From a virus (Duplodnaviria; Heunggongvirae; Uroviricota; Caudoviricetes): DNA of 34,603 bases. The notes under the pieces are model-generated. The model searched no databases and was not told the origin of the DNA. It saw only the letters and a list, made by a program, of their open reading frames with translations. Shown here piece by piece: positions 5,627-34,603 of the stretch. Made by a program: the position numbers and the translations under genes. The stretch is from IMG/VR virus record IMGVR_UViG_2541047739_000006; one strand, 5' to 3'. Numbering within the stretch: position 1 is the first letter of the stretch; every line of letters starts with the position of its first letter.

Positions 5627-5902
5627 GTGGCTTCTGTTTCTATCAGCTGTCCCTCCTGTTCAGCTACTGACGGGGTGGTGCGTAACGGCAAAAGCACCGC
5701 CGGACATCAGCGCTATCTCTGCTCTCACTGCCGTAAAACATGGCAACTGCAGTTCACTTACACCGCTTCTCAACCCGGTACGCACCAGAAAATCATTGAT
5801 ATGGCCATGAATGGCGTTGGATGCCGGGCAACAGCCCGCATTATGGGCGTTGGCCTCAACACGATTTTACGTCACTTAAAAAACTCAGGCCGCAGTCGGT
5901 AA
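5627..5902 (+). CDS. insA: IS1 InsA
   Basis: 91-aa [43 protein letters not shown]...; recognised IS1 InsA. Confidence 0.95.
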
Positions 5903-6324
5903 CCTCGCGCATACAGCCGGGCAGTGACGTCATCGTCTGCGCGGAAATGGACGAACAGTGGGGCTATGTCGGGGCTAAATCGCGCCAGCGCTGGCTGTTT
6001 TACGCGTATGACAGGCTCCGGAAGACGGTTGTTGCGCACGTATTCGGTGAACGCACTATGGCGACGCTGGGGCGTCTTATGAGCCTGCTGTCACCCTTTG
6101 ACGTGGTGATATGGATGACGGATGGCTGGCCGCTGTATGAATCCCGCCTGAAGGGAAAGCTGCACGTAATCAGCAAGCGATATACGCAGCGAATTGAGCG
6201 GCATAACCTGAATCTGAGGCAGCACCTGGCACGGCTGGGACGGAAGTCGCTGTCGTTCTCAAAATCGGTGGAGCTGCATGACAAAGTCATCGGGCATTAT
6301 CTGAACATAAAACACTATCAATAA
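5821..6324 (+). CDS. insB: IS1 InsB (expressed as InsAB' by -1 frameshift)
   Basis: 167-aa ...[47 protein letters not shown]...; recognised IS1 InsB. Confidence 0.95.
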
Positions 6325-6961
6325 GTTGGAGTCATTACCGACGCGCCGAGCGTCTTTTTTTATGTCGTAGGTCTGACTCACCCATTTTTTGGGCGTTGGT
6401 GTATAATCCAGCGCCTTTGTCAATCAATGGTGGCTCAGGCGGGGGCTTCTTCGGAAGCGCCGGTATCCTTCAGAGCCGGTTACGCCAACCCTGTCTGGGC
6501 TACCACCAGCGAAATTGGCGTTTCCGGTGGTAGCGTAACCTGCTATCTGAAGGAGGCTGCCACATGCTGGCTACTACCCCTACCCAAAAACCGCAATTTA
6601 TCTGGATTATCGCCGCAGTTCGCCGCGATTGCCCGACAATTACCGCCAAAATTCATCATATTGCTGCCGAGTCTGAACGCGATGCTCGCCGTTCTCTGGT
6701 GCGCGATCACGTCTGCTTTTTTGCTGGTCGTATCCGCATGGAGGTGGCACATGATTAAAACCTACGATGTGCATATGGATCCCCTCGAACGCACAAGCCA
6801 GATCATCACACTGACAGAAGTGATTAACGACATTCTGGTGAGCAACTCTCCCTCACGAGACGAAAGGCTGAAGGCGTTACTCGCGATATTGGATCTCGCC
6901 GTTCGTGACGTTCATTTCCTGCTGGAAGGTGGCGAAATGCCAGGAAAAACGGGGGCAACCA

Positions 6962-12450: not shown

Positions 12451-12912
12451 ATGGAACTAAAATTTATTGATAACCCTGTGCGATTACAGGCCTTTCTTAA
12501 CGAGCCAGGCAATACCGAAAATATTGTTGAGCCGGGGCACACGTACTACATCAAGCCTGATGCGGTATATCTCGGCATCTACGAAGGATTAGTGCTGGCT
12601 GGCGTTCATGAAGTGCGTAACTTCTGGCATAGCGTTGTTGAATGCCATGCGGTGTACGACCCCGGATTCCGTGGTGAATATGCACTGCAAGGACATCGAT
12701 TATTCTGCAAATGGCTTCTCGAAAACTCACCATTCCTTAACAGCATTACCATGGTTCCTGACACCACGAAATACGGACGGGCAATTATCCGTTTGCTTGG
12801 CGCTACCCGTGTTGGTCATCTTGATGATGCTTATATCAGATGTGGTAAACCCGTCGGCGTAACGCTTTATCAGTTAACTCGGCAACAATATAAGGAATTC
12901 AGCGAATGTTAA
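12451..12912 (+). CDS. hypothetical protein (possible P22 gp14-like; low confidence)
   Basis: 153-aa ORF, first of a same-strand run of four genes whose sizes (153/225/249+/701 aa) parallel P22 genes 14-7-20-16 as I recall them; similarity not verified. Confidence 0.65.
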   Translation: MELKFIDNPVRLQAFLNEPGNTENIVEPGHTYYIKPDAVYLGIYEGLVLAGVHEVRNFWHSVVECHAVYDPGFRGEYALQGHRLFCKWLLENSPFLNSITMVPDTTKYGRAIIRLLGATRVGHLDDAYIRCGKPVGVTLYQLTRQQYKEFSEC

Positions 12913-13583
12913 TTACCCATATAGCTTATAAACATCTCAATCGTGCCGTATACGAAAAAGGCGGTGATGGTGGTGCCTCTAAAGCTCAGGCGAAGGCCCA
13001 GCAGCAGGCAATTGATTTGCAGCGCGAGCAGTGGAATACGGTGATGAATAATCTCAAGCCGTATGCAGAAGTCGGATTGCCTGCTTTACAACAACTACAA
13101 GGACTGATGACTCTGGAAGGGCAGAATAAAGCCGCGAATGATTTCTTTGGTTCTGGTTTATATAAAACACAGGCAGATCAGGCCCGTTATCAGAACCTTG
13201 TCTCAGCAGAAGCTACCGGGGGGCTTGGCTCAACAGCTACCAGTAACCAGTTATCTTCCATTGCGCCCATGCTTTATAACAATTGGCTCAGTGGGCAAAT
13301 GCAAAATTATGGAAACCTGCTAAATGTCGGGATGAATGCGGCATCAGGGCAGGCAACAGCAGGGCAAAACTACGCCAATAATACCGGACAACTCTTGCAG
13401 GGGCTTGGCGCTATTCGTGCAGGTCAGGCGCAGCAGCCATCCAGTCTTGCGCGTGGTATTGGTGGGGCGGCATCAGGCGCTTTAGCGGGTGCGCAACTTG
13501 GTTCCGTTGTTCCGGGTATAGGTAATGTCGCCGGGGCTATTGGTGGTGGGCTTATTGGTCTTGTTGGGGGGCTTGGATTCTAA
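12906..13583 (+). CDS. Q/G-rich hypothetical protein with glycine-zipper C-terminus (possible phage ejection/internal protein)
   Basis: 225-aa ORF overlapping the upstream stop; C-terminus GGAASGALAGAQLGSVVPGIGNVAGAIGGGLIGLVGGLGF. Confidence 0.65.
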   Translation: MLITHIAYKHLNRAVYEKGGDGGASKAQAKAQQQAIDLQREQWNTVMNNLKPYAEVGLPALQQLQGLMTLEGQNKAANDFFGSGLYKTQADQARYQNLVSAEATGGLGSTATSNQLSSIAPMLYNNWLSGQMQNYGNLLNVGMNAASGQATAGQNYANNTGQLLQGLGAIRAGQAQQPSSLARGIGGAASGALAGAQLGSVVPGIGNVAGAIGGGLIGLVGGLGF

Positions 13584-14327
13584 TGGCGACATGGCAACTT
13601 GGCGGGCTGCCTAGCATGGCACCGCAAAATGATAATGCTCCTCGTTCTTCCGTTCCTCAGCCTGTGCAGTATCAGCAGCAGCCAAACGTAGGTTTAATGG
13701 CGCTACAGGGGCTAAGAGGCGTTGCTGAGATTAATCAGCAGGCACGTCAACAACAGCGTAAAGCAGAGTTTCAGAAAGCATATGCCGGGGCTTTTGAGTC
13801 TGGAGACAGAAACAAAATGCGCAGTCTTATTTCTGAGTATCCAGAAGAATTTGAAAGCGTTCAGAAAGGGATGGGCTTTATTGATGACGACCAGAGAAAT
13901 TCTATTGGTCATCTTGCGACTAGTGCTCAAATCGCATCTTCGCTCGGAACTGGGGCATTTGGAAAATTCATAGCAGATAACGAAGATGAAATGCGTCGTT
14001 TGGGAATTTCTCCTGAGTCTGTTGCCGAAATGCATGTTAATGATCCACAGGGATTCCAGCGGCTTGCTGGTAGTATGGCACTGTTTTCTCTCGGTCATGA
14101 GAAGTACTTCGATATCAAAGATCGAATGGAAGGTCGGGATATTGAGCGTGGCAAGTTGGCAGAGACGATCCGCAGCAATCAAGCCGGAGAAGCACTTCAG
14201 GCGAGAGGGCAGGATATTAGCCGAGCAAATGCGTTAACGTCAGCATATGCACCAACAGCCGCAATGCAGAATTACAATCAATACGCGCAAATGTTAAAGG
14301 CGGATCCAGAGGGGGCTGCGGCATTTG
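13583..14327 (+). pseudogene. hypothetical phage-like protein, 3'-truncated by IS1
   Basis: ORF starts at the upstream stop (ATGG overlap) and runs into the IS1 end at 14328; the apparent stop lies inside IS1. Confidence 0.6.
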
Positions 14328-14342
14328 GGTAATGACTCCAAC

Positions 14343-21279: not shown

Positions 21280-21378
21280 ATGGGGGTACTTTTGGGGGTA
21301 TCTATAAAAAATGAACAATAAAAAAGGCAACAAAAACAAAGCTTATCGCCTATGTGTATTGTTCCTATTATCGCACAA
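21280..21378 (+). other. putative attR of the P4-like element (arm-type repeat ATGGGGGTACTTTTGGGGGTAT plus degenerate core TCCTATTATCG-CACAA)
   Basis: 21/22 match to the arm repeat at 1557; TCCTATTATCG at 21363..21373 matches the thrW 3' end at 1428..1438, then diverges. Confidence 0.4.
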
Positions 21379-21983
21379 TCAAGAAAATCAATAACTTAGC
21401 TTAACTTCTCTAAGAAATTGTATCTTCTGTTATCACTTACAAACGCCTATACGTTGTTATGGGCTTTGGTAGTGTAACACGTATGGGCGAGTAGTTCCCA
21501 GGCTCAACCTCGTAACAAGTTCCTTTGAAGCTGGAAGACGTGCCACCGTCTCTAAACCTTCTACCAAAACTCTTAGCAAGATGTTCCACACCTGGCGCGG
21601 TGTCCAATGATGCTACACGTCGTGAGACGTTGCAGAGGATAAACAGGCTAAATGATGGGAAGAGTTTTAAGTGCAATAGTGGATCAAAGCCCACCTCTTC
21701 AAAACCTAACTTGATCGGGAAAGAATCAAGCTCTAGCACGGTTTCGTCCACCGGAGTACAACGGGTGCCTGATAAGAGAAGAACTGCTAAGACTTCATAG
21801 CTTTTGTGAAAAAGCCCTTTTAGTGGATACGCCTACGGCGCTTATTTTTTGGGGTAGCCCATCAAAGGCGCTTTATGGCTCCTATTGTCTTGAAAATGTA
21901 TCTTTACTTGTATTGTGTTTTATGCGTAGTCTCCCTGTGTAGTATGTAACTTGTTAATTTTCATATGAATACAGAGGCACACG

Positions 21984-22142: not shown

Positions 22143-22310
22143 AAATCTCCAGAACGCAACAGGACGCATTCTAACGCTATTTTCATTGCTTGGTATAGGG
22201 ATGTATAGGTGATGTGTGTTTAATGCGTCTGTGCGCTTGTTTTGTGCCTTATTTTGCATTTTCATAATGCAGAAGAGAACACGGAAAACCTTAAAATTAA
22301 TTATTGGGGT

Positions 22311-22472
22311 ATTTAAGGGTATTTTCAGGTGATTTAAGGGTATTAAACTTGATTTAATTGATTAAAATATAAACAGATAGTTGTGTATCTTATTGATTTA
22401 TAAGGTTATTTTTAAATAAAGGTAAATAAAAAATAAATAGCCATAAATAGCTATAAATACATCTAAATACCT
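22311..22472. repeat. direct repeats ATTTAAGGGTATT x2 (22311, 22332) and four tandem ~10-bp units TAAATAsC (22434..22472)
   Basis: Read directly in AT-rich non-coding DNA; helical-turn periodicity. Confidence 0.55.
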
Positions 22473-22610
22473 ATATCCCTTCCCTTATGGCTAGATTGCG
22501 AGAGGTGCTTAACGCGATTTTCAGCGCCCCCCGATCTGGAAAATCCAGAATCCCCAAATATCAGCAAGGAATTTTCTTGCGTAATCAACATCGTTTTTAC
22601 CTATTAAATC

Positions 22611-23925
22611 ATTACACAGAAAGCCTTTCTGTAATGTCTCTCACTAAACTTTCACTAAACACGAGAATGATCGGTTTTATGTCGGATCAGATGCTAGAAA
22701 CAGCACCACGTCTCACAAGGACTGTAAGCGATGAAACCAGTGTTTATGCGGGTGCAGGTCAAAATATAGGCCAAAATCAATTTAACATAATAAACGTAAT
22801 ATGCACTAAGGAACACATAGAACGCCTTGAGTTGATGTATCAGGGGAAAAATGATGGATTTTTTACGTAGGAGCACGAGAGGGCTTCTGTTGACTTTTGT
22901 ATGCTATGAAACATAATTAAAGGTTTTTTTGTTTTTATTGTGTGATGTAGTGGATTACACAGGGGAATAGATTAAATGGTGTTCTGTTTATACAGGTTTA
23001 TTTGTTAGATCAACAATTTGGCATTTCTAAACAGATGTTTGAACGTTGCCAAATGTCTTGACAACACAAGAAAAGGGCTTGCTATGCCACGCATTACACG
23101 AAATAAGGCTGTAAAAACAAAATAAATTTTAAAATTTGCACAAACGAGAAAACTCGTTAAGAAACAAGCAGAACAATTTTTAGCCAACAATTTCTGATGG
23201 TGCTCTGTAGGCCGCACTACACAAGGATTTGCGAAAGTGATGTAAAAGTGAAGAAAGTAAGAATTGCACTTTTAAGCTACTTTTCATTGAATTTTTAGTA
23301 TGGAATTACACAGGAATAAGTTAGGGATATTCTATGATTTACACAGGGAATATAGGGGATTATGGCACACACATAGAAAGGCATTACACAGAGTGAGTGC
23401 TATGTGATGATTGGTAGTAACGGTAGGTCATAGTGAGCTAGGGGGTAGGTCACTGTGAACTACAATAAGACTATTAATAAAACTATATTAGATTATTAAT
23501 TAGATCATAATAATAATATTCTTTATATCTATATATATGATCTTTTGCCTTCCGGCGTTAGCTTCACTCTCTGGCAAGCAGCCTTACTCCGCTACCTTTC
23601 GGGCTTCGTGGCTGGCCCGTTCCGCTCACACCGAAAGCAAAGCGTTACTTTCTTCGTGTAACTTCGTTGGCGGTAACGCCCACGAAGAAATCTATTGCGC
23701 TGTGCGCAGTAAGAGTAATCACCTAACCAATCATACTGATTGCTTATGTGTTAACTCTCTCTAACTCTTAATTACCCTCCTACATTTAATAACTCTGTTA
23801 TTCTCTGTAGTTGTGTAATTACTCGAAGAGAGAGCGGCTAAAGCTCAATTACACTCTGCTTTCCTCGTGTAATTTCACTAAGCCTCAATACAATTTCACT
23901 TCCTACATTCTGTAGTCGTGTAATT
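22611..23925. repeat. dispersed iteron-like motif ATTACACAGG(G)AATA: about six forward copies (22611, 22954, 23093, 23305, 23337, 23383) then about four inverted copies (about 23655, 23813, 23866, 23916)
   Basis: Read directly; forward copies cluster upstream and inverted copies downstream of a GC-rich hairpin island. Confidence 0.55.
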
Positions 23926-24561
23926 GTTTTCGGTGGAAAAGCCAGAGGCGACACCGAAAGAGAATTCTGATCTTATTAATCTTATCTATCTTAGTTAATC
24001 TTCTTACTTATCTTACTTACTTTATCTACTTTATTATTAATAATAGCTTTATAAGCTCTCTGTGTAGCTCTCTGACGCAAGAAACAGCATTCAGGAAGGG
24101 AATCACCTTAGAAAAGGTGTTCTTTGCGTCATAATGTGTTTTATGAAGGATTCAGAGGTGTTTCATAACAGGAATGTATAGAGAATACTTTAGGTAATTA
24201 AAAATAAGGGGTCTAAATGCTTCTCTAACAGCATTAAGCAGGGTAGGGAATGGAAACGCATTGCCTACATATAATAAACTCACTACAGGGCTTTACAGGG
24301 CGTTTTATAAAGTGACTCTCTGTTTTATATCTACAATCACCTTTTCATATACCTAACAAATACAAAATAAGCCCCTTAAATAAGCCTCTGGCGAGCTAAA
24401 CAGACATTACATAAGAGAATGTATTGCTTTTATCAAAACTTCGTTAGAACGCGTTTTAGAGCGTTTTAGCGGATAATGAAGAATAGCACTACACAGAAGA
24501 GCACGAATTGCCAAGACAAATTATAACATGCTGAAAAAGATCGATTTTTTCGAAAAGGGTA

Positions 24562-24590
24562 TTGACAAATGTTTCTTTATATGTAATAAT
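24562..24590 (+). promoter_or_regulatory. sigma70-like promoter (TTGACA, about 17 bp, AATAAT) preceded by palindrome TTTTCGAAAA
   Basis: Consensus -35 at 24562..24567; AT-rich -10 at about 24585; about 115 nt upstream of the first gene of the operon. Confidence 0.35.
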
Positions 24591-24703
24591 AGGTATTAGA
24601 GGGACAGAAAAACATTCTTCTCTAAATAATCAAAATCAATGCACTTTGAAGCCGTCAGGCTTGCAAGGTGTTTTATTTCTTTTAACTGAATAAGGAGTTT
24701 TTT

Positions 24704-25082: not shown

Positions 25083-25135
25083 TTTTTATCACCATAGTAG
25101 CGCCATAGAGCGTGATTACATCAAGGAGATTTTTA

Positions 25136-25828
25136 ATGATTAACCAACTAACTTTTACAAAACACTATGACACGTTTGATAATATATCAAAGATTTATTC
25201 TGATAAATTCCCTCAAGGAAAAGATTTAGATCTATTACATATTGTGCTTTATTTTCGATTCCTTAGTTATCAGGAAAACAACCTTAATTGTTATGAAAGT
25301 CACGAAACATTAGCTAAGATTTTTAAGTCTTCACCATCAACAATTAAACGTAAGATAAACGATCTTAAAGAGATGGGATTATTAGAAACATCCCCACATC
25401 CTGATCCGTATATTTCATCTTTGATTTACAATGCTCTCCCTCTCACAGATGCACATATTACTCCCCCAGGAGAATCATCACTCTCTGATCTTTCTGAGGC
25501 AGAAGAAGCACAGGAACAACCTAAAGGCCATAAACAGCCTTCTTTTGATGTTCTTGATGATGATTGGGATACGCCTTTACCCTGGGAGACGGAAGAAACA
25601 CCTGTTTCATCAAGTGAAAAGGTAGCTAATGATAATGAGGAGGATGTGTTAGAGAATTTTGCCTCTCTTATCATCCAGGAGAAACACAAAAGAACAGGAG
25701 GGGCATCATTTATAGAATTTGCAAATTCACTAGCTTGTAGATACGGGCTAAAACGACCAAATGGTATTGAGGCATATTTTTCTAAGCATTACCCAAATGT
25801 ATACGAAGACTTTGATATTCCCTTTTAA
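25136..25828 (+). CDS. replication-initiator-like protein (wHTH N-domain, acidic linker)
   Basis: AGGAG before ATG 25136; ETLAKIFKSSPSTIKRKINDLKEMGLLE helix-turn-helix; acidic stretch DLSEAEEAQEQ...DDDWDTPLPWETEE. Confidence 0.6.
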   Translation: MINQLTFTKHYDTFDNISKIYSDKFPQGKDLDLLHIVLYFRFLSYQENNLNCYESHETLAKIFKSSPSTIKRKINDLKEMGLLETSPHPDPYISSLIYNALPLTDAHITPPGESSLSDLSEAEEAQEQPKGHKQPSFDVLDDDWDTPLPWETEETPVSSSEKVANDNEEDVLENFASLIIQEKHKRTGGASFIEFANSLACRYGLKRPNGIEAYFSKHYPNVYEDFDIPF

Positions 25829-26255: not shown

Positions 26256-26666
26256 ATGGCAAAAAGAAAAAACAACGTTGTTAAGAAAATCGGTGATTCA
26301 GCTTCTCTTCTAAGTAAACCTAAATCTATTCTAAAACGTAAAGACTTTAAAGAGCTAGTTACGCTCACCAAGCATAATAGCGCCCCTGGCGAATGGAAAA
26401 CAGAGATCATAGAACATTCTCCCTCTGTGCCTTGTGGAGATGAATATATCGCCTTACAAGAAATCTTATCTTCAACACCTGGCGTGTTCTGGAAACCTAA
26501 AAAAAGAAAAGAGTATATCGTTGATAGCTCTGATTTACGCAAATACCAGATTTTAGGATTTGAAGATTATAATCACTACGTTGGTTATCTCGCCACAAAT
26601 GGCCTAAATAATTTAGTTCCTGAATTCCAGATTTTAGATAATGCAGATCACTATGGAGACTTTTAA
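26256..26666 (+). CDS. hypothetical protein with basic N-terminus
   Basis: 136-aa ORF starting MAKRKNNVVKKIG. Confidence 0.6.
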   Translation: MAKRKNNVVKKIGDSASLLSKPKSILKRKDFKELVTLTKHNSAPGEWKTEIIEHSPSVPCGDEYIALQEILSSTPGVFWKPKKRKEYIVDSSDLRKYQILGFEDYNHYVGYLATNGLNNLVPEFQILDNADHYGDF

Positions 26667-27006: not shown

Positions 27007-27256
27007 AAAAAGCAACAAAAAAGTTGTAAAATATCTTGGCATTCCATCTATTGTATGTTAATATAATTATATAGGGGTGATTATTTTTCCTTTATTGGTT
27101 CGATATTAAAAATTCTTCCTGTCATTAAAGGGGAGTAAAATCTCCGCTCCCCGCTTCTTCTCCTCCTTAAGTAAATACTGTGCCATTATACCTCTTTGTT
27201 ATGCATACATCTTGGAGTATGCATAACATAGGGTAATTACATAGGTATGAGTTAAT

Positions 27257-27288
27257 AAAAGGCGGCTTTAAATGCTGCCTTTTATTTT
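27257..27288 (+). terminator. intrinsic terminator between the early and structural operons
   Basis: AAAGGCGGC-TTTAAAT-GCTGCCTTT stem-loop followed by TATTTTG. Confidence 0.45.
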
Positions 27289-27350
27289 GCCCGTTATACA
27301 ACTTAAAAGTTGTATTTCTTACTTTAAACAAGGTAACAAGGTTTATATAA

Positions 27351-27563
27351 ATGTTGCTCTTAAATGATAAAGAGCAAATCATCAAGTATAAAGATGAAAT
27401 GCTGAAAATTAATCCACAAATTACCGAAATGGTAGCTAAATACGCTGGGTGTTCTGTCGAGGAAGTAGAAAGATGTGTTGAAAAATATTTTTCTCCTTCT
27501 TCTCCGTCTACACCTTCCCTTAATGAATTAATCAAATTAAAAGCTAAGGAGATTACTAAATGA
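27351..27563 (+). CDS. hypothetical small protein
   Basis: 70-aa ORF; its stop overlaps the next start. Confidence 0.5.
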   Translation: MLLLNDKEQIIKYKDEMLKINPQITEMVAKYAGCSVEEVERCVEKYFSPSSPSTPSLNELIKLKAKEITK

Positions 27564-27922
27564 TTATTGATTTAGACACTCTGTTTCCAGTTCGAAAGAC
27601 TTTCACGGATATTGTAAGTTATTGTACTGATCCGTTTGCCTCTGTAGAAAGCAAGGTTTTTGCTTCTCTTCCTGCTGATGTTGAGTGCGGCGACTTGATC
27701 ACCAGCACTGGCGCTAAATATGAATCAGGAGATGATATTTATGTTGTTATGAGTGAATTTGTAACGGCTGGAGAAAACAAGCCTGTAGATGTGCTACGTA
27801 GCAATGCTGGGCTTGTATGCATCAAAGCTGATGCGCTGAATGCTGTAAGTGAAGCAGCAAAAACAGCATTAATTAAAAAAGGCTTTCAGCTTGAAGGGTT
27901 CCATTCTGTTTTCACTTCTTAA
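27560..27922 (+). CDS. hypothetical protein (possible scaffold/decoration-type partner of the next gene)
   Basis: 120-aa ORF, ATGA-coupled to the upstream gene, 18 nt before the 342-aa gene. Confidence 0.6.
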   Translation: MIIDLDTLFPVRKTFTDIVSYCTDPFASVESKVFASLPADVECGDLITSTGAKYESGDDIYVVMSEFVTAGENKPVDVLRSNAGLVCIKADALNAVSEAAKTALIKKGFQLEGFHSVFTS

Positions 27923-27940
27923 TAAAAGGAATAATAATAA

Positions 27941-28969
27941 ATGATTCTAGGTAATGATTACGTTGATTTAGCTCCTCTGTTCTCTGCGCATAGCACTAGA
28001 AATTATCTACTTTCTACTCTCGACTTCACTGATCCGGTGGGCGTTAGTTCTCATAAAGTAGCTGTTTCCCAGCTTGTCGAAAGCAACGAATCTCTCTTTA
28101 ACAAAGAGACAAGCCGTTTTAGTTCTGAACACAATGTTACTAAGCGAGAACAAGGTAAAGAATGGCTGATCGAAATCCCTTACTTCCTGCGTGAAGATGT
28201 GATCCGTCCTTCTGATGTTCAAGGCAAGCGTAAGCCTGGCACTGATTTTCAGGAAACACTCACTGATATTTATGCTGACTATGTTGCTAAACACCACGTA
28301 GCGTATCAGCGTACAAAAGAGAGCGTGCTGGCTGCATCTCTGTTTAGCGGTAAAACTTACACGCCTAAAACTGATGATGTTCTTATCGAGTGGAGCAAGC
28401 TGTTTAACGTATCAGCTATGAAAGCCACTGTGAACGCTTCCAGCACTGACACCACGAAGATTTTTAAAGAATTTGATCAGATTGCTACTGACATTATCGA
28501 AAAAGCACAGAGTCAGGCGGCGGCTGTAGAGCGAATTGTTGTTTTCTGTAAGCCGGAAGCCTTCTCTGCAATTCGATTCTCTGCTGGTATGGCAAACGCA
28601 TTCCAGTATGTAAGCCCACTGGAAGAGGGGAACGTTGTGTATCAGCGTCGTGACCTGCTGCCAGGGGTGACAGCGTTCACTATTCCAGGAACTAACATTG
28701 ATGTTGTTAAACTGGTAGATCCGCTACACCTGGCACATATGACCGCAGACGCTGTAGCTGTGCCTAAATTCTCTAAGGGTAGCGGAATTTATACCAACAT
28801 CTACGGGGCTGCTTCCAGCACCTTTGAACTGATTAATGCCGCTCCTGCTGAGGTGTATAGCTATAGCTATGAATCTTCTCGTGGTGATGCTGTTAACGTT
28901 GTTACAGAGAATAGCCAGATGGTGGTAAACCACGGTGTAGGCTTCTCCGTTCAAATCACTGTTAAATAA
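27941..28969 (+). CDS. major structural-like protein (342 aa), family unknown
   Basis: Long ORF followed directly by a strong intrinsic terminator, as for a highly expressed capsid or coat gene; beta-rich C-terminus. Confidence 0.75.
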   Translation: MILGNDYVDLAPLFSAHSTRNYLLSTLDFTDPVGVSSHKVAVSQLVESNESLFNKETSRFSSEHNVTKREQGKEWLIEIPYFLREDVIRPSDVQGKRKPGTDFQETLTDIYADYVAKHHVAYQRTKESVLAASLFSGKTYTPKTDDVLIEWSKLFNVSAMKATVNASSTDTTKIFKEFDQIATDIIEKAQSQAAAVERIVVFCKPEAFSAIRFSAGMANAFQYVSPLEEGNVVYQRRDLLPGVTAFTIPGTNIDVVKLVDPLHLAHMTADAVAVPKFSKGSGIYTNIYGAASSTFELINAAPAEVYSYSYESSRGDAVNVVTENSQMVVNHGVGFSVQITVK

Positions 28970-28987
28970 TATTTTAACGTGTAATAG

Positions 28988-29022
28988 AGGCGTGGCGTGA
29001 ATAACACGCTTCGCCTTTTTTT
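28988..29022 (+). terminator. intrinsic terminator
   Basis: AGGCG ... inner hairpin GCGTG-AATAA-CACGC ... CGCCT followed by TTTTTTT. Confidence 0.6.
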
Positions 29023-29055
29023 ATTTATTTTTAAATTTTGAGAGGTGATTAAAAT

Positions 29056-29259
29056 ATGGAAGTGATTTTGAAATCAAAAAATGGTGTACACGTACATTTA
29101 GATGCTAATGATTCTAGAGGATTGTTAAATCTGAAATATCTCTGTTCTCTTTTAGATGTTCCCTATGAAGGAGTAAAAGCCCGTATGTTCAGATTAAACG
29201 AGAGTATTGATCAGGCTCTACACCATTTCTTAAGCAAAGAAGGTGGTAAAAATGATTAA
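29056..29259 (+). CDS. hypothetical small protein
   Basis: 67-aa ORF with GAGAGG upstream. Confidence 0.5.
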   Translation: MEVILKSKNGVHVHLDANDSRGLLNLKYLCSLLDVPYEGVKARMFRLNESIDQALHHFLSKEGGKND

Positions 29260-30178
29260 TAAGGGGATTTTAAATGTTAGAAATTAACACTTCTAAAATT
29301 AAGAACACAGTAACATTTAGTGTAGATAAAGACAGCTTGAAAAAAGCGAAAGACTCTATTACAGGCTTAAAGGAATTTGCAGAGAATATCAAGCCAGCTA
29401 AGTTAAGGTTTGATAATGTCACTAAAGGCTATAAGAAAGCACAAAGTGAAGTAGACAAGATTGCTCAACAGAAAGCTAAAGCCGAAAAACAGAATCAAAG
29501 AGTACAAGCTGCCGCAGCAAGAGCACAGGCAAGGCAACAGCAACAAATAGCAGCACGTAAAGAGAAAGCAGAATTAAAACTCCTCGATGTGTCAAGCTCT
29601 ATCAGTGCAATGCACCGTCTCTCTGTAGCTGAACAATACAAAGCTATTGCACAGGCTAGAGAAATTGCCCTCCAATATGAAAGAGGCGCTATTAGTCTGG
29701 CACGTATGAATAGCCAGATGAAACGCTTACAACAGCAACAACGTAAGATTAATGGCAACAGAAAAGCACAATTAGCCCCCGTTAAGGGAGGATCAGGGAA
29801 TTCCGCCACTATGGGCGCTCTGTTATTTGGAGGCGCTACGGCTGCTGCTGGCGTGATGGCTGTTAGTAAAGCGTCGGAGTTTGTTAGTAGCAGTTTCGCT
29901 AACGCAGAGACCCAAGGGGAGCTAATCCAACGTGCAAGGCTTGGCGGTGTAGACGTTAACCAGATGTATAATATTACAGAATGGGCGTATAGAAACGGCG
30001 TTGACTCTATGATGGGTGATCAAGGGGCTAGGAAATACCTGGATCAGATGAAAGATGTTAGGGAACGTGCCGCAAAATCCTACAGTGAAGCTGAATTGGT
30101 GAAAGACAAGAAAACCGGAAAATCTGAATGGAAAGGCGGTGATAATGCTATTAATGAACTTCTAAACTGGATTTGCCC

Positions 30179-31084
30179 CTATATTTCCAGACATCTGTTA
30201 TCACTTAACCCATTACAAGCCCGCTGCCGCAGATATTCCCGTGGCGAGCGATAACCCAGCGCACTATGCGGATGCCATTCGTTATAATGCTCGAACGCCT
30301 CTGCAAGGTTCTTTGCTGCCGTTAACCCGTCTGGTTTGGGCATGATACTGATGTAGTCACGCTTTATCGTTTTCACGAAGCTCTCTGCTATTCCGTTACT
30401 CTCCGGACTCCGCACCGCCGTGTTCTTCGGTTCAAGTCCCAACATCCGGGCGAACTGGCGTGTTTCATTAGCCCGGTAGCATGAACCATTATCCGTCAGC
30501 CACTCCACTGGAGACGACGGAAGATCGTTGCCGAAGCGGCGTTCCACCGCTCCCAGCATGACGTCCTGTACTGTTTCACTGTTGAAGCCGCCGGTAGTGA
30601 CCGCCCAGTGCAGTGCCTCACGATCACTGCAGTCCAGCGCGAACGTGACACGCAGTCTCTCTCCGTTATCACAGCAGAACTCGAACCCGTCAGAGCACCA
30701 TCGCTGATTGCTTTCTTTCACGGCCACTCTGCCTGTATGTGCCCGTTTCGATGGCGGTACAGCAGGTTTTCGCTCAAGCAACAGCGCATTCTGGCGCATG
30801 ATCCGGTAAACACGTTTGGCATTGATCGCAGGCATACCATCAAGTTCTGCCTGTCTGCGAAGCAGCGCCCATACCCGACGATAACCATACGTGGGCAGCT
30901 CTCCGATAACATGGTGTATACGGAGAAGCACATCCGTATCATCAGTGTGACGACTGCGGCGGCCATCCATCCAGTCATCGGTTCGTCTGAGAATGACGTG
31001 CAACTGCGCACGCGACACCCGGAGACAACGGCTGACTAAGCTTACTCCCCATCCCCGGGCAATAAGGGCGCGTGCGCTATCCAC
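30179..31084 (-). CDS. insD: IS2 OrfB transposase (InsD)
   Basis: 301-aa [34 protein letters not shown]...; recognised IS2 InsD. Confidence 0.93.
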
Positions 31085-31407
31085 TTTTTTGCCCGTCCAT
31101 ATTCAACGGCTTCTTTGAGGAGTTCATTTTCCATCGTTTTCTTGCCGAGCAGGCGCTGGAGTTCTTTAATCTGCTTCATGGCGGCAGCAAGTTCAGAGGC
31201 AGGAACAACCTGTTCTCCGGCGGCGACAGCAGTAAGACTTCCTTCCTGGTATTGCTTACGCCAGAGAAATAACTGGCTGGCTGCTACACCATGTTGCCGG
31301 GCAACGAGGGAGACCGTCATCCCCGGTTCAAAGCTCTGCTGAACAATTGCGATCTTTTCCTGTGTGGTACGCCGTCTGCGTTTCTCCGGTCCTAAGACAT
31401 CAATCAT
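31042..31407 (-). CDS. insC: IS2 OrfA (InsC)
   Basis: [41 protein letters not shown]...; recognised IS2 InsC. Confidence 0.93.
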
Positions 31408-32473
31408 CTGCTCTCCAATGACTAGTCTAAAAACTAGTATTAAGACTATCACTTAAATAAGTGATACTGGTTGTCTGGAGATTCAGGGGGCCAGTCTATA
31501 AACATCGGTGTTATTAACAAAAGCGACCTTAAAAAATTTGCTGATAATCCGGCTGGATTAATTTCTAAGGCTGTTAATGGAATGATGAAAAAAGGGTTTT
31601 CAGACTCCCAAATTGGACAACGTTTAGAAGACCTGGGCGATGATTTGATGCTTACGTCAAAATATTGGCAACGTTCCGTTAAAGATGTACAAGAAAGTAT
31701 TAATCAGCAAAAAGCCTCTGGAAAATGGCTAACAGAAACACAGCAAGACTCTATTGTTAAATTCAGAGAACTAAACAGACAGCTTTCACAGCTTTCTGAT
31801 GCAAGACAAGTAGCATTCGTAGACGGCTTTATGAAATCTCTCGATCCAAAAGTAACGGAAGAGTTTATGAAAAACCTTTCTAATCTCACTCCGTATTTTA
31901 CGAAGCTGGGAGAAGCTACAGGAAGTCTCTTTGAAGCTATTATGAAGATTGTAAACTGGTTTAATCGTAATGATGATAAGACAGATGCTATTCAGAAAAA
32001 TATGGGTGATGCACCGCCATTAAGCAATGAAGGGATGAAACAGAATCTTTCTAATCTCGTTCCTAATCAATATAAAGGCGCTGGCACTGCAACAACTACA
32101 CCTGATAATAGTCATTCTCTCTTTAACACAATTAAGGGATTGCTTTTCGATGATAATTCTTCTGTGTCAGATGTAAAAATGTCAGTCAATGAAGCACCGA
32201 TAACCAATCTCAAACAGGGTGCTTTAAATAATCTTGCAATGACAACTCCAGCTTATAATTTATCTCCTGTGTTTAATCTGAATCCTACATTTGAAGTGGT
32301 AACAGAAGTGCCGCTAACTATCGAATCAGACACCGGACGATTGAGCGATTATGTGGATTTTACAGCGAGAGCAAGTCGGGATAGCTTCTTGAAATCATTA
32401 ACATTAACCAGCTTATCAGGACAATCCAACGGCGGGTAATTCCCGCCATAACATTACAAGGAAAATTATTATT

Positions 32474-33187
32474 ATGGCGACCGCCGGGATTTTAACCATA
32501 CGTGCAGCAAATACTCCAGAACAACACGTTCAGGCTGTTTACAAAGCAGAACAAGATATAAATTCTACAAAAAACGAAAATAGCAAAGCTAATAAAACAA
32601 AAGGAGAGAACGGATTTGCTATTGTTACCAGTGGCTTGGCATCTTCTGGTAATGACGTTTATGAAAATTATATGGCACTGGCCTTTGATAGTGTTGACGA
32701 TGTGAACGTGAGACGTTCGGCAGATGTCACAAGCTACCCCGTAGAAAATGGTGCTACTGTGTCTGATCACGTTCAAATTAAAAACAATAAGTTCTCTCTT
32801 AAAGGGCGTATCACTGAAACACCGATTAAAAGCGATCCTGGCTTGTTAAAGAGTGCAGGGGTGAACGGGAACAGAAGATCATTAGCTATAGACTACTTGA
32901 ATCAGATTATGGACAGTAGACAGCCTTTTCTTCTTGTTACAGAAAATAAAACTTTTGAGAACGTTGTTTTAACAGGCATCGAATACACAGAAGAGGCAAG
33001 CGAATCCCTGGTATTTGATCTTAGCTTTGAACAAATAAGATTAGTTTCTTATGGTACTGTAAACACTGTAGCTATCAAAACACAGCCATCTAAGAACATC
33101 GGGGCGAATATGAAAAAACGTGTTAACACTGAAAAATCAAGTAGTGAAGGTGAAGACACTATTACTCCTGCCTTTAAACAGGAATAG
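32474..33187 (+). CDS. hypothetical structural-like protein (237 aa)
   Basis: Follows the IS2-split gene on the same strand; no recognisable catalytic motif. Confidence 0.65.
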   Translation: MATAGILTIRAANTPEQHVQAVYKAEQDINSTKNENSKANKTKGENGFAIVTSGLASSGNDVYENYMALAFDSVDDVNVRRSADVTSYPVENGATVSDHVQIKNNKFSLKGRITETPIKSDPGLLKSAGVNGNRRSLAIDYLNQIMDSRQPFLLVTENKTFENVVLTGIEYTEEASESLVFDLSFEQIRLVSYGTVNTVAIKTQPSKNIGANMKKRVNTEKSSSEGEDTITPAFKQE

Positions 33188-33268: not shown

Positions 33269-34603
33269 CTATGGCGTTGTTTTGCGCATTAAATTTGATT
33301 TTTTATTGATTGATAAGCCTTTCTCTATTTCAGGGTAGCGTAGAAGCTCAATATAGTTTTTAAGCTCTACTGGAGAAGCTGCATTCTTGCTATATGTGCG
33401 GAATGTCTCTGTATTGCCGCGTGTATGGCCCAGGAGAAGGGCGATCCTGTCTTCTGGAATTTGATTTCGATCAAGAAGCTGTGCTACTCCGTGTCTCAGA
33501 GAATGAAACACCTTCCTTTCTGTTCCCTTTTCCCCTAAAGCCTTTCGTTTAGCTCTTGTAAATCTCTGCGTGTGCCACGTGGAACGTTTACCATCAGCAC
33601 GCTCTGTAATGCTGGCGTGATAGAACAAAAAGCCATTATGAGGCTTTTCACGCAGCGACAACACCAACGGAGTGATAAGGCTATGCACAGGCACAAGACG
33701 TGCCGCAGCTTTCGTTTTTCCCTGTGTGATTTCAAAACACAGCACACCTTCGATCTCTTTCACATCGTCTATTGTGAGACTTGCTATCTCATTGATCCGC
33801 ATACCTGTATAAGCACCGATAAGACACAAAGCCATCATTTCTTTGTTTTCTGCTGAATCACCGGAAAATACTTGCAACACCTGCAATAGCTCTTTGTTAG
33901 AAAATGCCTCGTAGCTCTCTCTACTTTGTGCCACATCAAGCCTATGCCCTCGCCAGGGGGAGAGCGCCCTTTCTGGCGCATCGTGGTAACGTGATGAAGC
34001 TAACTCCCATAGCTGGGCCATTGGGCTGATATAATTTGCAATTGATTGTTGTGAAAGGGTTTTTTGCATGTGTTCTATCCAGCCTGTAACAGTGGTGCGG
34101 CTTACATCTTGCAATGCAATATCAGGCTTTTTACGGTAGGAGAGAAACATCTCTACCGCTTTTCTTGCCTTAGCTAAAGTGGCTGGCTTCTTCTTCGTGC
34201 TGTTAATTGTCAGGTAGATTTCAAGAATTTTAAGCAATGACGGACACGAAGACGCTGTATCTTGCATTCTGGTAGCTGTTTTGGCGTATTTAGCCTTACT
34301 GCGTAACAGTTCCAGCGTGTTCTCTATTGTGCTGTTTACAGGGGCGACACTCTCCCGTAGACAATGGTATTCATCTGCAATCTGATCACGCTTTCTACGT
34401 GCAACACGAAGACTACTTGTGTGCAGACTTCTGACAAACGTCCTTTTTCCTTCAAAAAAGGGCTGCATATACACAGGCAACGTGATCCTCAAATAGTAGT
34501 TACCGTAAGAATCACAGATTATGTATTGATTGGGCTTGTATCTCATAAACTCCCCGGCTAAAGTGTCGGAGCGTTTGTAATGTGAAAATTGATTGTAACG
34601 CAT
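33269..34603 (-). CDS. tyrosine site-specific integrase (second element); 5' end at window edge, possibly incomplete
   Basis: 444-aa ORF with tyrosine-recombinase motifs (YTGMRINE arginine, HSLRH, LLGHT, nucleophile Y in TFRTYSKN); the initiator ATG is the last three bases of the window. Confidence 0.85.
   Translation of the reverse strand: MRYNQFSHYKRSDTLAGEFMRYKPNQYIICDSYGNYYLRITLPVYMQPFFEGKRTFVRSLHTSSLRVARRKRDQIADEYHCLRESVAPVNSTIENTLELLRSKAKYAKTATRMQDTASSCPSLLKILEIYLTINSTKKKPATLAKARKAVEMFLSYRKKPDIALQDVSRTTVTGWIEHMQKTLSQQSIANYISPMAQLWELASSRYHDAPERALSPWRGHRLDVAQSRESYEAFSNKELLQVLQVFSGDSAENKEMMALCLIGAYTGMRINEIASLTIDDVKEIEGVLCFEITQGKTKAAARLVPVHSLITPLVLSLREKPHNGFLFYHASITERADGKRSTWHTQRFTRAKRKALGEKGTERKVFHSLRHGVAQLLDRNQIPEDRIALLLGHTRGNTETFRTYSKNAASPVELKNYIELLRYPEIEKGLSINKKSNLMRKTTP

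Follow-up and report, generated by a model that had tools for sequence, protein, structure and literature searches.

P4 and PLE are small islands of 11–18 kb with small capsids and helper-made tails, employing the external scaffold Sid and the decoration protein Psu (P4) or TcaP (PLE). P4 has a genome of 11.6 kb, and the core genes of P4-like elements include psu, sid, delta and the primase alpha, among others. Both remodel the capsid protein of the helper with an external scaffold, as the title of PDB entry 8g1r also indicates, and are not known to encode a capsid protein. A virulent myophage acts as helper in the well-studied case of ICP1 and PLE in Vibrio. The cfPICI are defined by a core of 11 components, among them portal, head-tail adaptor and connector, and terL, while their detection model treats tail genes as 'forbidden' (PMC10085698). 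In phage phi92 (Justusliebigvirus) the T=13 shell bears the cement protein as a beta-tulip trimer (PMC13450770).

Here we analyse a 34,603-nt stretch of DNA (the window; IMG/VR record IMGVR_UViG_2541047739_000006), whose second element (element 2) is a 12.4-kb att-flanked integrative island at tRNA-Thr (Table 1). It encodes a major capsid protein, but is without most virus genes, and therefore probably makes the shell itself, while a large virulent phage lends the remaining parts. We consider it probable (at about 60%) that the island is a satellite of phi92-like virulent myophages with its own shell and tail core.

Table 1. Features of element 2, by position in the window
Feature	Position	Strand	Remarks
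Degenerate internal att copy, left end of element 2	21363..21383	+	
Two 22-nt iterons (GGTAGGTCAyrGTGArCTA)	23423..23463	+	gene-poor AT-rich stretch
HTH protein resembling phage replication initiators	25112..25828	+	Pfam HTH_36
Sigma-70 promoter-like site, extended -10	27036..27064	+	TTGGCA-17-TAATAT
Non-coding leader or small RNA, promoter to T1	27071..27253	+	
Intrinsic terminator T1, upstream operon boundary	27254..27291	+	hairpin 27254-27286 and U-rich tail
Perfect palindrome ATACAACTT-AA-AAGTTGTAT, T1 to orf70	27296..27315		candidate regulator site
orf70, first operon gene	27351..27563	+	70 aa, ATGA overlap with start of 120-aa gene
120-aa probable cement/decoration protein, gpD-like	27560..27922	+	
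342-aa HK97-fold major capsid protein	27941..28969	+	Pfam, PHROG, Foldseek, profile
Intrinsic terminator T2 after capsid gene	28986..29025	+	hairpin 28986-29018 and U7 run
orf67, small conserved gene before tape-measure gene	29056..29259	+	
Tape-measure homologue, N-terminal part	29274..30167	+	phrog_16051
IS2 insertion, 1,331 bp	30168..31498	-	5-bp target duplication TAAAC
Tape-measure homologue, C-terminal part	31499..32439	+	
Tail tube initiator, Dit-like	32474..33187	+	Pfam Dit_like, E 3.4e-29
Tyrosine integrase of element 2	33269..34603	-	Pfam Phage_integrase, PGAP annotation

The capsid operon and the tail-core genes

An earlier note on this DNA had singled out the 120-aa and 342-aa genes as a terminator-bounded pair. 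The pair, whose proteins have the accessions WP_001570994.1 and WP_001570993.1, is real: both genes have ATG starts and lie on the same strand with a gap of 18 nt and no terminator between them, and the cement gene adjoins the capsid gene in every locus that has both. Both boundaries also stand, since T1 upstream (dG -17.8 kcal/mol, z -4.7) and T2 downstream (dG -20.0 kcal/mol, z -5.6; equalled by 0 of 200 shuffles) are strong hairpins, T2 following directly after the 342-aa gene as had been described. The gene count has to be corrected, as the operon comprises three genes, with orf70 in front. This gene is kept across genera at 45–49% identity; no family match was found in Pfam, PHROG or NCBIfam, and no similarity to the phi92 scaffold gp122 in a BLASTP comparison. 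Nor is the 342-aa ORF the longest intact one of the element, as had been claimed, the integrase having 425 aa (PGAP; maximal ORF, 444 aa). On the plus strand it is the longest intact gene, but only because IS2 interrupts the gene for the 611-aa tape measure.

The 342-aa protein is an HK97-fold major capsid protein, in agreement with the major capsid or coat component predicted in the note. It matches the Pfam family Phage_cap_E (PF03864) with 53.5 bits (cut-off 22.9, E 2.5e-14) over profile positions 14–329 of 329, and this domain is present in all full-length homologues among the matches listed. In PHROG it matches phrog_29 ('major head protein'). The best match of its family profile among solved structures is phi92 gp124 (E 4e-19, residues 2–341), and the next is the capsid of Pakpunavirus P7-1. 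Sequence identity to gp124 is only 21%, so that the protein may not assemble with a portal and scaffold of the phi92 type. The N-arm is the most phi92-like block, where 14 of 30 residues agree with the family consensus, versus 22% overall. The closest phage-encoded capsid protein is about 25% identical, and a close homologue is absent from sequenced phages.

Structure models of the 342-aa and 120-aa proteins are of modest confidence (pLDDT 60 and 59, respectively), that of the capsid protein having a confident core with a 34-residue helix at residues 103–136 (pTM 0.65). When this model was searched with Foldseek, the check suggested in the note, the best 26 PDB matches were all phage HK97-fold capsids. 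The top targets were the capsids of PhiTE, ICP1 (second-best), Bas63, Sf14, YSD1 and lambda (ranks 18–31), while the SaPIbov5 Ccm procapsid appeared at rank 45. At E <= 0.001 there were 36 PDB matches, the non-phage ones being two HK97-fold encapsulin shells. No match to an enzyme or other non-structural family appeared, the outcome that the note had named as refuting its reading, and the suggested surface structure unrelated to virions finds no support.

The 120-aa protein is probably a cement or decoration partner of the capsid, of the lambda gpD type, a call based on fold and gene position. Its model (modest confidence) resembles gpD-type cement proteins, and its top match in BFVD is a 'head decoration protein'; this resemblance would make the 'small coupled gene' of the note a particle component as well. 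No match was found in Pfam, PHROG or NCBIfam, and a link to phrog_2680 is transitive, via two distant profile matches. Sequence kinship with phi92 gp123 was considered and rejected, as BLASTP gave no match even at E <= 10 and hhalign a probability of 1.4%. A tblastn search of 50,697 phage genomes also returned nothing even at E <= 10.

The tape-measure and tube-initiator genes downstream of T2 are related to the tail core of phi92. The ribosome-binding site of orf67 comes right after T2, and a promoter would not fit between them; orf67 has the position of phi92 gp133, to which no similarity was found by BLASTP. Over its first 66 aa, the N-terminal part of the tape-measure homologue shares 53% identity with phi92 gp134, and the intact 611-aa tape measure in sequence L002 matches gp134 with E 2.8e-38. 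As IS2 disrupts the tape-measure gene in the window, this copy, from isolate AF3, may not be transferable. The tape measures of E. coli and Citrobacter elements have their best matches in tape measures of 145–155-kb myophages. The tube initiator is 60% identical to phi92 gp135 over 205 aa (solved chain, E 2.1e-78), and was not found in Kluyvera, Scandinavium and Citrobacter elements.

The island, its spread and its regulation

The window from position 21363 onward aligns to sequence L002 from 3690 onward, which is the 3' end of tRNA-Thr, and the right att repeat lies about 90 bp past the window end (L001, 16391–16410). In strain ST866 (NZ_CP077646.1), where it is intact, the element measures 12,374 bp between 28-nt att repeats at tRNA-Thr, and in Buttiauxella 44-nt perfect repeats are found 13,772 bp apart at tRNA-Leu. 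The stretch with the two iterons is a probable replication origin; L002 has at least six iteron copies at 5850–6196. The HTH protein matches phrog_270 ('replication initiation protein', E 1e-9). The adjoining element 1 is P4-like, with an Ash protein, a C4 RNA and a Toprim/DUF927 primase, and matches to P4-like core genes were not found in element 2. Identity with the thrW prophage Sp1 of O157 Sakai was rejected, as Sp1 is a lambda-like remnant.

Four virion parts could be recognised on the island, i.e. capsid, cement, tape measure and (in some clades) tube initiator. Among the scanned ORFs of element 2 no terminase, portal, protease, scaffold, sheath or tube was found, in line with the earlier remark, borne out among the annotated ORFs, that terminase and portal are absent. 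A packaging-specificity gene was not recognised on the island either. NCBIfam and PADLOC scans of ten element proteins gave nothing meaningful. For orf136, another widely conserved gene, all 276 homologues are unannotated, without a Pfam domain and restricted to Enterobacterales, and no phage match was found. An autonomous tailed prophage is thus not what is seen, terminase, portal, tail tube/sheath and lysis genes all being absent from these 12.4 kb. The gene content instead fits the satellite suggested in the note: a discrete integrative element with predicted replication functions, in which essential virion and packaging genes are missing.

Of 5,426 E. coli genomes, 314 carry the element, which makes about 6% of the complete genomes of this species, and the island is common in Klebsiella, Citrobacter and Enterobacter. 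At least six genera have this compact set of genes, the ORFs being intact and att repeats present, with capsid-protein identities of 37–64%. Conservation of the core was seen in loci of Escherichia, Citrobacter, Kluyvera, Buttiauxella, Scandinavium and Enterobacter, and every locus of sufficient length to span cement, capsid and tape measure has the three genes. Against copies from five genera, dN/dS values are 0.12–0.19 for the 342-aa gene and 0.03–0.19 for the 120-aa gene; the capsid and cement genes are real and under purifying selection. The matches in IMG/VR are mostly prophage calls within isolate genomes. Several metagenome contigs are about 12.5–13.4 kb long; two of the three inspected (~12.6–13.3 kb) start within the flanking tRNA, and therefore look like assembly breaks around integrated copies. 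Terminal overlaps were found in none of 20 tested metagenome contigs of about 12.6–18 kb, and no circular or virome-only contigs were found.

The layout of promoter, leader and terminator in front of the operon is kept across genera. In sibling copies the -35 of the promoter is TTGACA where the window has TTGGCA, and in other genera near-consensus equivalents (11/12) are located 850–940 nt upstream of the cement gene; a terminator at the position equivalent to T1 is also present in other genera. Leader and terminator together (27071–27292) have an MFE of -65.2 kcal/mol (z -4.2). An Rfam search of 21.8–29.3 kb at permissive settings gave one sub-threshold chance match, and none for the leader. 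The palindrome behind T1 is a possible regulator site, and in other genera a visibly dyad-symmetric sequence (by eye, unscored) occupies the same place. The palindrome (ACAACTT-NN-AAGTTGT) was not found in 24 kb of phi92 sequence, and therefore a shared operator gains no support. We propose that the promoter-leader-T1 unit would hold the operon silent until read-through of T1, which may be likened to lambda pR'-tR' with its Q antiterminator. T2 in turn would lower transcription of the tail-core genes, of which few copies are needed, relative to that of the capsid genes.

A putative satellite of phi92-like myophages

The lead to a helper comes from the tube initiator with its 60% identity to gp135, from the tape measures and from the capsid N-arm. 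These suggest that the island may, as a satellite, depend on large virulent myophages of the phi92 kind (Stephanstirmvirinae and relatives). Upon infection by such a helper the island would excise and replicate, and the capsid operon would be expressed to give a small shell that holds about 12 kb and is, if P4 is a guide, probably T=4. The helper would provide portal, scaffold or protease, terminase, neck, sheath, tube and baseplate, and the tail would be assembled around the satellite's own tape measure. The data above establish what the proteins are, where the element ends, which functions it lacks, how widely it is conserved and that purifying selection acts on it; helper dependence, helper identity, capsid size and antitermination are inferred. 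Several points speak against the satellite reading: the metagenome contigs gave no sign of excision or packaging, the IMG/VR matches are mostly prophage calls, both structure models are of modest confidence, a scaffold or packaging-specificity gene was not recognised, the capsid protein is only 21% identical to gp124, and some of the elements have no tube initiator.

A more specific proposal, to which we give somewhat less than even odds, is that these islands form an undescribed Enterobacterales family of satellites that live on phi92-like myophages, replace only the shell and inner tail core, keep their virion genes behind a constitutive promoter-leader-terminator unit that antitermination opens, and give rise to chimeric particles with satellite parts in head and tail alike. 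The parts replaced by the satellite would tentatively be capsid and cement on the one hand, and the tape measure, with or without the tube initiator, on the other. Such a division of labour between head and tail parts, if it holds, would be one that is unseen in P4, PICI, cfPICI and PLE. A satellite of phi92-like phages or an island with such a gene set was not found in the part of the literature that the search reached, many subscription-journal papers lying outside it.

Alternatively, the capsid, cement, tape-measure and tube-initiator homologues might be decoys that poison phi92-like virions, the island itself being unpackaged and the population protected. Blocking of helper assembly has precedents among satellites and islands, an example indicated by PMC11364771 being tail assembly interference. 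The tail proteins are close enough to those of phi92 to plausibly enter phi92 assembly, and the lack of a recognised packaging-specificity gene would also suit such a role. However, the integrase, att sites, iterons and initiator-like protein point to excision and replication, the strong purifying selection that acts across genera on a matched pair of cement and capsid genes suggests that the shell works and is no poison, and no PADLOC family was matched, so that we regard a pure interference island as unlikely. Interference would in any case be compatible with satellite behaviour, and not exclusive of it. Less probable again is a capsid homologue that redirects size, in which the 342-aa protein would mix with the helper capsid protein to give small capsids, as Ccm does in SaPIbov5. 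Although homology to the capsid protein of the putative helper over the full length, the comparatively conserved N-arm and the Ccm procapsid among the Foldseek matches are consistent with it, the low identity to gp124 (21%) argues against mixing. So does the island's own cement protein, which has no detectable sequence similarity to gp123, and therefore implies a distinct lattice surface.

That the island is a decaying prophage remnant, in which the surviving structural genes are idle, is very unlikely and largely refuted. The IS2 element inside the tape-measure gene of the window copy and the neighbouring island at this hot-spot tRNA site would agree with decay, but the same compact intact set recurs in at least six genera at 37–64% capsid identity, and dN/dS is well below 1. 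Moreover, a close phage homologue is absent (best capsid about 25%; the 120-aa protein in 0 of 50,697 phage genomes), and the related phages are virulent and form no prophages. Hardly credible is a non-viral, encapsulin-like HK97-fold compartment or other cellular structure: encapsulins do occur among the weaker fold matches, but the best fold matches are all phage capsids and the Pfam family is phage-specific. In addition, its neighbours are genes for a cement-like protein, for a tape measure and for a tube initiator, and no adjacent gene for a cargo enzyme was found.

Taken gene by gene, the locus is ordinary, consisting of a capsid protein and its probable cement partner, the former already labelled 'major capsid protein' by RefSeq. 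Its interest lies in the context, as the island retains no more than a module for the shell and one for the tail core. If it is a satellite, enterobacterial satellite-helper biology extends to large virulent phages, and parasite and helper share out the virion parts in a new way. The phi92-like myophages include phage therapy candidates, for which a satellite would be relevant, since islands of this kind usually reduce the yield of the helper and mobilise host DNA. Standard detection models, judged from their definitions, would probably reject this family because tail genes are forbidden.

Comparison with known systems

Phage phi92 shares with the island the order of cement (gp123), capsid (gp124) and terminator, followed by a small ORF, tape measure (gp134) and tube initiator (gp135). 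The proteins are also of similar size (island versus phi92: 120 vs 130, 342 vs 333, 611 vs 659 and 237 vs 236 aa). The kinship of the capsid proteins is at the profile level only, whereas the tail-core genes are clearly related. In contrast to the 12-kb integrative island, the virulent phage phi92 has a genome of 148 kb, a T=13 head and the full set of other virion genes. The decoration protein and Phage_cap_E capsid protein of lambda (gpD/gpE) are distant, given the 120-aa protein without a Pfam match and the ranks of the lambda capsids (18–31).

Among the satellites, no sequence relationship of P4 or PLE to the island was found; the PLE helper ICP1 is, like phi92, a virulent myophage, and its capsid is the second-best fold match of the 342-aa protein. 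Ccm of SaPIbov5 is encoded by a satellite and homologous to the HK97-fold capsid protein of its helper, as the 342-aa protein would be to that of the putative helper, but the match is weak, Ccm co-assembles with the helper capsid protein, and its island is without a cement or tape-measure gene. The cfPICI are like this island in being chromosomal islands with an integrase, a replication module, their own capsid protein and helper dependence (putative in the present case). The island differs from them in that portal, head-tail adaptor and connector, terL, terS and protease were not found among the scanned ORFs, and in that it carries genes for the tail, i.e. those of the tape measure and the tube initiator.

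The shell genes and their operon

The 342-aa protein encoded in element 2, the att-flanked island downstream of element 1, is almost certainly a capsid protein. Its match to Pfam Phage_cap_E exceeds the curated threshold, it matches PHROG 29 ("major head protein"), and its RefSeq label is "major capsid protein". A profile built from 28 relatives aligns end to end with the solved capsid protein gp124 of the virulent myophage phi92 (E 4e-19), the second-best solved match being the capsid of Pakpunavirus P7-1. The AlphaFold prediction (pLDDT 60, pTM 0.65) shows a confident core and a 34-residue spine helix; its N-arm and E-loop are poorly defined, as is common for a monomer. The 26 best Foldseek matches of the model are all phage HK97-fold capsids, led by those of PhiTE, ICP1, Bas63, Sf14, YSD1 and lambda, and the only non-phage targets among the 36 matches with E <= 0.001 are two HK97-fold encapsulin shells. 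All 53 database relatives are from Enterobacterales, with about 342 residues when full length; no close relative was found among 50,697 genomes of sequenced phages (best about 25% identity). Identity to gp124 is 21% overall and is highest in the first 30 residues (14/30 identical to the family consensus), which at most hints at retained N-arm contacts.

The 120-aa protein encoded by the preceding gene is likely a cement protein. It has no match in Pfam, PHROG, NCBIfam or PADLOC, nor in any phage genome searched, and only 23 relatives emerged when 1.84 billion representatives were searched exhaustively with a profile. Two distant relatives match PHROG 2680 ("head decoration"), and a "head decoration protein" ranks first, albeit weakly (E 5e-3), in a Foldseek search against viral models. 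Wherever a locus has both genes, this one directly precedes the capsid gene, an arrangement shared with gp123-gp124 of phi92 and D-E of lambda. Comparison with copies from E. coli clades, Enterobacter, Buttiauxella, Kluyvera, Scandinavium and Citrobacter gave dN/dS values of 0.12-0.19 (capsid) and 0.03-0.19 (cement), so both genes are functional.

The earlier note had proposed these two ORFs as a terminator-bounded pair encoding a major capsid or coat component. Both ORFs are present, separated by 18 nt, and their role as the shell module of the element is supported. The bounds also hold, as strong hairpins lie downstream of the capsid gene (T2, followed by seven U; dG -20.0 kcal/mol, z -5.6) and upstream of the operon (T1; dG -17.8, z -4.7), and for each 0/200 shuffles fold as well. 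However, the unit comprises three genes rather than two, since it opens with a 70-aa ORF (orf70) overlapping the start of the cement gene in ATGA. Nor is the capsid gene the longest intact ORF of the element, as had been stated: the integrase ORF is longer (425-444 aa), and the tape-measure gene is longer still (611 aa in the related locus L002 and, intact, in strain ST866) but is split by IS2 in the window.

Transcription signals

A near-consensus sigma-70 extended -10 promoter is located 3' of orf121; it reads TTGACA-17-TAATAT in sibling copies and has one mismatch to this in the window. It is followed by a structured non-coding leader that extends to T1 over about 200 nt in the window and roughly 550 nt in other genera (overall range 200-600 nt). 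Buttiauxella, Kluyvera, Citrobacter and metagenomic relatives share this promoter-leader-terminator layout, which has no Rfam match. It resembles lambda's pR'-6S RNA-tR' unit, opened by Q antitermination, and by analogy could be a lambda-like antitermination unit; it could equally be a small-RNA gene. The position of Q in lambdoid phages, two genes 5' of the late promoter, is occupied by orf136, the other widely conserved gene; its 276 homologues, none of them annotated, all come from Enterobacterales, with Klebsiella especially well represented, and orf136 itself lacks both a Pfam domain and a phage homologue. Two dyad-symmetric sites sharing AAAAGTTGT may be regulator sites: the first lies just 5' of the -35 hexamer, the second, a perfect palindrome, between T1 and orf70. 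In other genera dyad symmetry is visible by eye (unscored) at the T1-orf70 position.

Between T2 and the ribosome-binding site of orf67 the interval is too short for a promoter, and transcription of the tail-core genes (tape measure and tube initiator) must therefore pass through T2, which would give many capsid and few tail-core transcripts.

The island and its setting

E. coli isolate AF3 carries the window at 100% identity on its chromosome (NZ_OZ547117.1). The window starts inside proA, next to which is a tRNA-Thr gene; 3' of the latter the two islands lie in tandem.

Features of the window
Feature	Position	Remarks
thrW (tRNA-Thr)	1369-1444	
Element 1	about 1.5-21.3 kb	P4-like; integrase, AntA, IS1, Ash protein, C4 antisense RNA, Toprim/DUF927 primase
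Ash-family gene/IS1 transposase region	5821-6324	
C4 antisense RNA	6423-6510	Rfam RF01695, 79.9 bits
P22 gp7 and gp20 homologues	12906-14332	Pfam P22_gp7 E 2e-72; Inj_translocase E 4e-59
Element 2, left boundary	21363-21383	degenerate att copy
Gene-poor AT-rich stretch	22150-24700	2.6 kb
127-aa ORF	22487-22870	no family match
Iterons	23423-23463	two copies, 21-22 nt
orf136	26256-26666	
Dyad-symmetric site	27012-27027	
Promoter-leader-T1 unit	27036-27291	equivalents: L006 8742-9321, L010 8752 to about 9320
T1 hairpin	27254-27286	
Dyad-symmetric site	27298-27313	
orf70	27351-27563	
Cement gene	27560-27922	120 aa
Capsid gene	27941-28969	342 aa
T2 hairpin	28986-29018	
IS2	30168-31498	1,331 bp; 5-bp target duplication TAAAC

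In element 1, the C4 RNA is located at the start of the Ash-family gene, with an IS1 transposase immediately 5'. P22 virion genes other than the gp7 and gp20 (ejection protein) homologues are absent. Both islands carry isolated DNA-delivery virion proteins: these homologues in element 1, and the tape measure in element 2.

Element 2 has a G+C content of 35-45%, versus about 50% upstream, and extends past the window, its right att repeat lying about 90 bp beyond the end. In strain ST866 it directly adjoins tRNA-Thr, between 28-nt repeats 12,374 bp apart; at tRNA-Leu, a Buttiauxella relative (L006) is flanked by perfect 44-nt repeats 13,772 bp apart, and another relative adjoins tRNA-Gly. The element is present in 314/5,426 complete E. 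coli genomes, always chromosomally. Its gene order is: small ORFs, the AT-rich stretch, an HTH protein similar to the replication initiators of phages, three genes without assigned function (orf92, orf136, orf121), the capsid operon, orf67, a tape-measure homologue (phrog_16051), a Dit-like tube initiator and the integrase. The AT-rich stretch, which contains further short repeats besides the iterons (at least six copies in L002, 5850-6196), is probably a replication origin. The window copy may be immobile because of the IS2 insertion in its tape-measure gene.

Among 30 related loci, all that are long enough to show the full core carry the cement, capsid and tape-measure genes together; in three the contig breaks off too early. 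Elements of Kluyvera, Scandinavium and Citrobacter lack the tube initiator, and the modules for replication, integration and cargo are mosaic. In L006 (2114-4328), a 485-aa helicase-like protein stands in place of the HTH initiator; the locus also has a second small recombinase and, as cargo, a GNAT acetyltransferase and a glyoxalase/bleomycin-resistance protein.

Nature of the element

The tail-core proteins link the element to phi92-like phages. Its tube initiator is 60% identical to gp135 over 205 residues (E 2.1e-78 against the solved chain), and its tape measure matches gp134 (E 2.8e-38), with 53% identity in the first 66 residues; for the tape measure of the Citrobacter element, too, the best matches are from 147-155-kb myophages of Escherichia, Klebsiella and Citrobacter. 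With cement-capsid-terminator followed by small ORF-tape measure-tube initiator, the island reproduces the gene order of two non-adjacent segments in the late region of phi92, where a terminator likewise directly follows the capsid gene. We put the chance that the helper is a phi92-like phage at about even.

No terminase, portal, protease, scaffold, neck, sheath, tube, baseplate or lysis genes are recognisable in the element, and the data examined gave no direct sign of excision or packaging. We favour a phage satellite (probability about 0.65), since the element is discrete, mobile, putatively replicating and conserved under selection across genera, and since it carries a minimal coherent set of virion parts but lacks all that it would need to build a particle unaided. 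It was not found described in the literature searched, and fits neither the PICI nor the P4 type. Nor does it fit the cfPICI type: it has no portal, connectors or terminase, and it carries tail genes, which the cfPICI model forbids.
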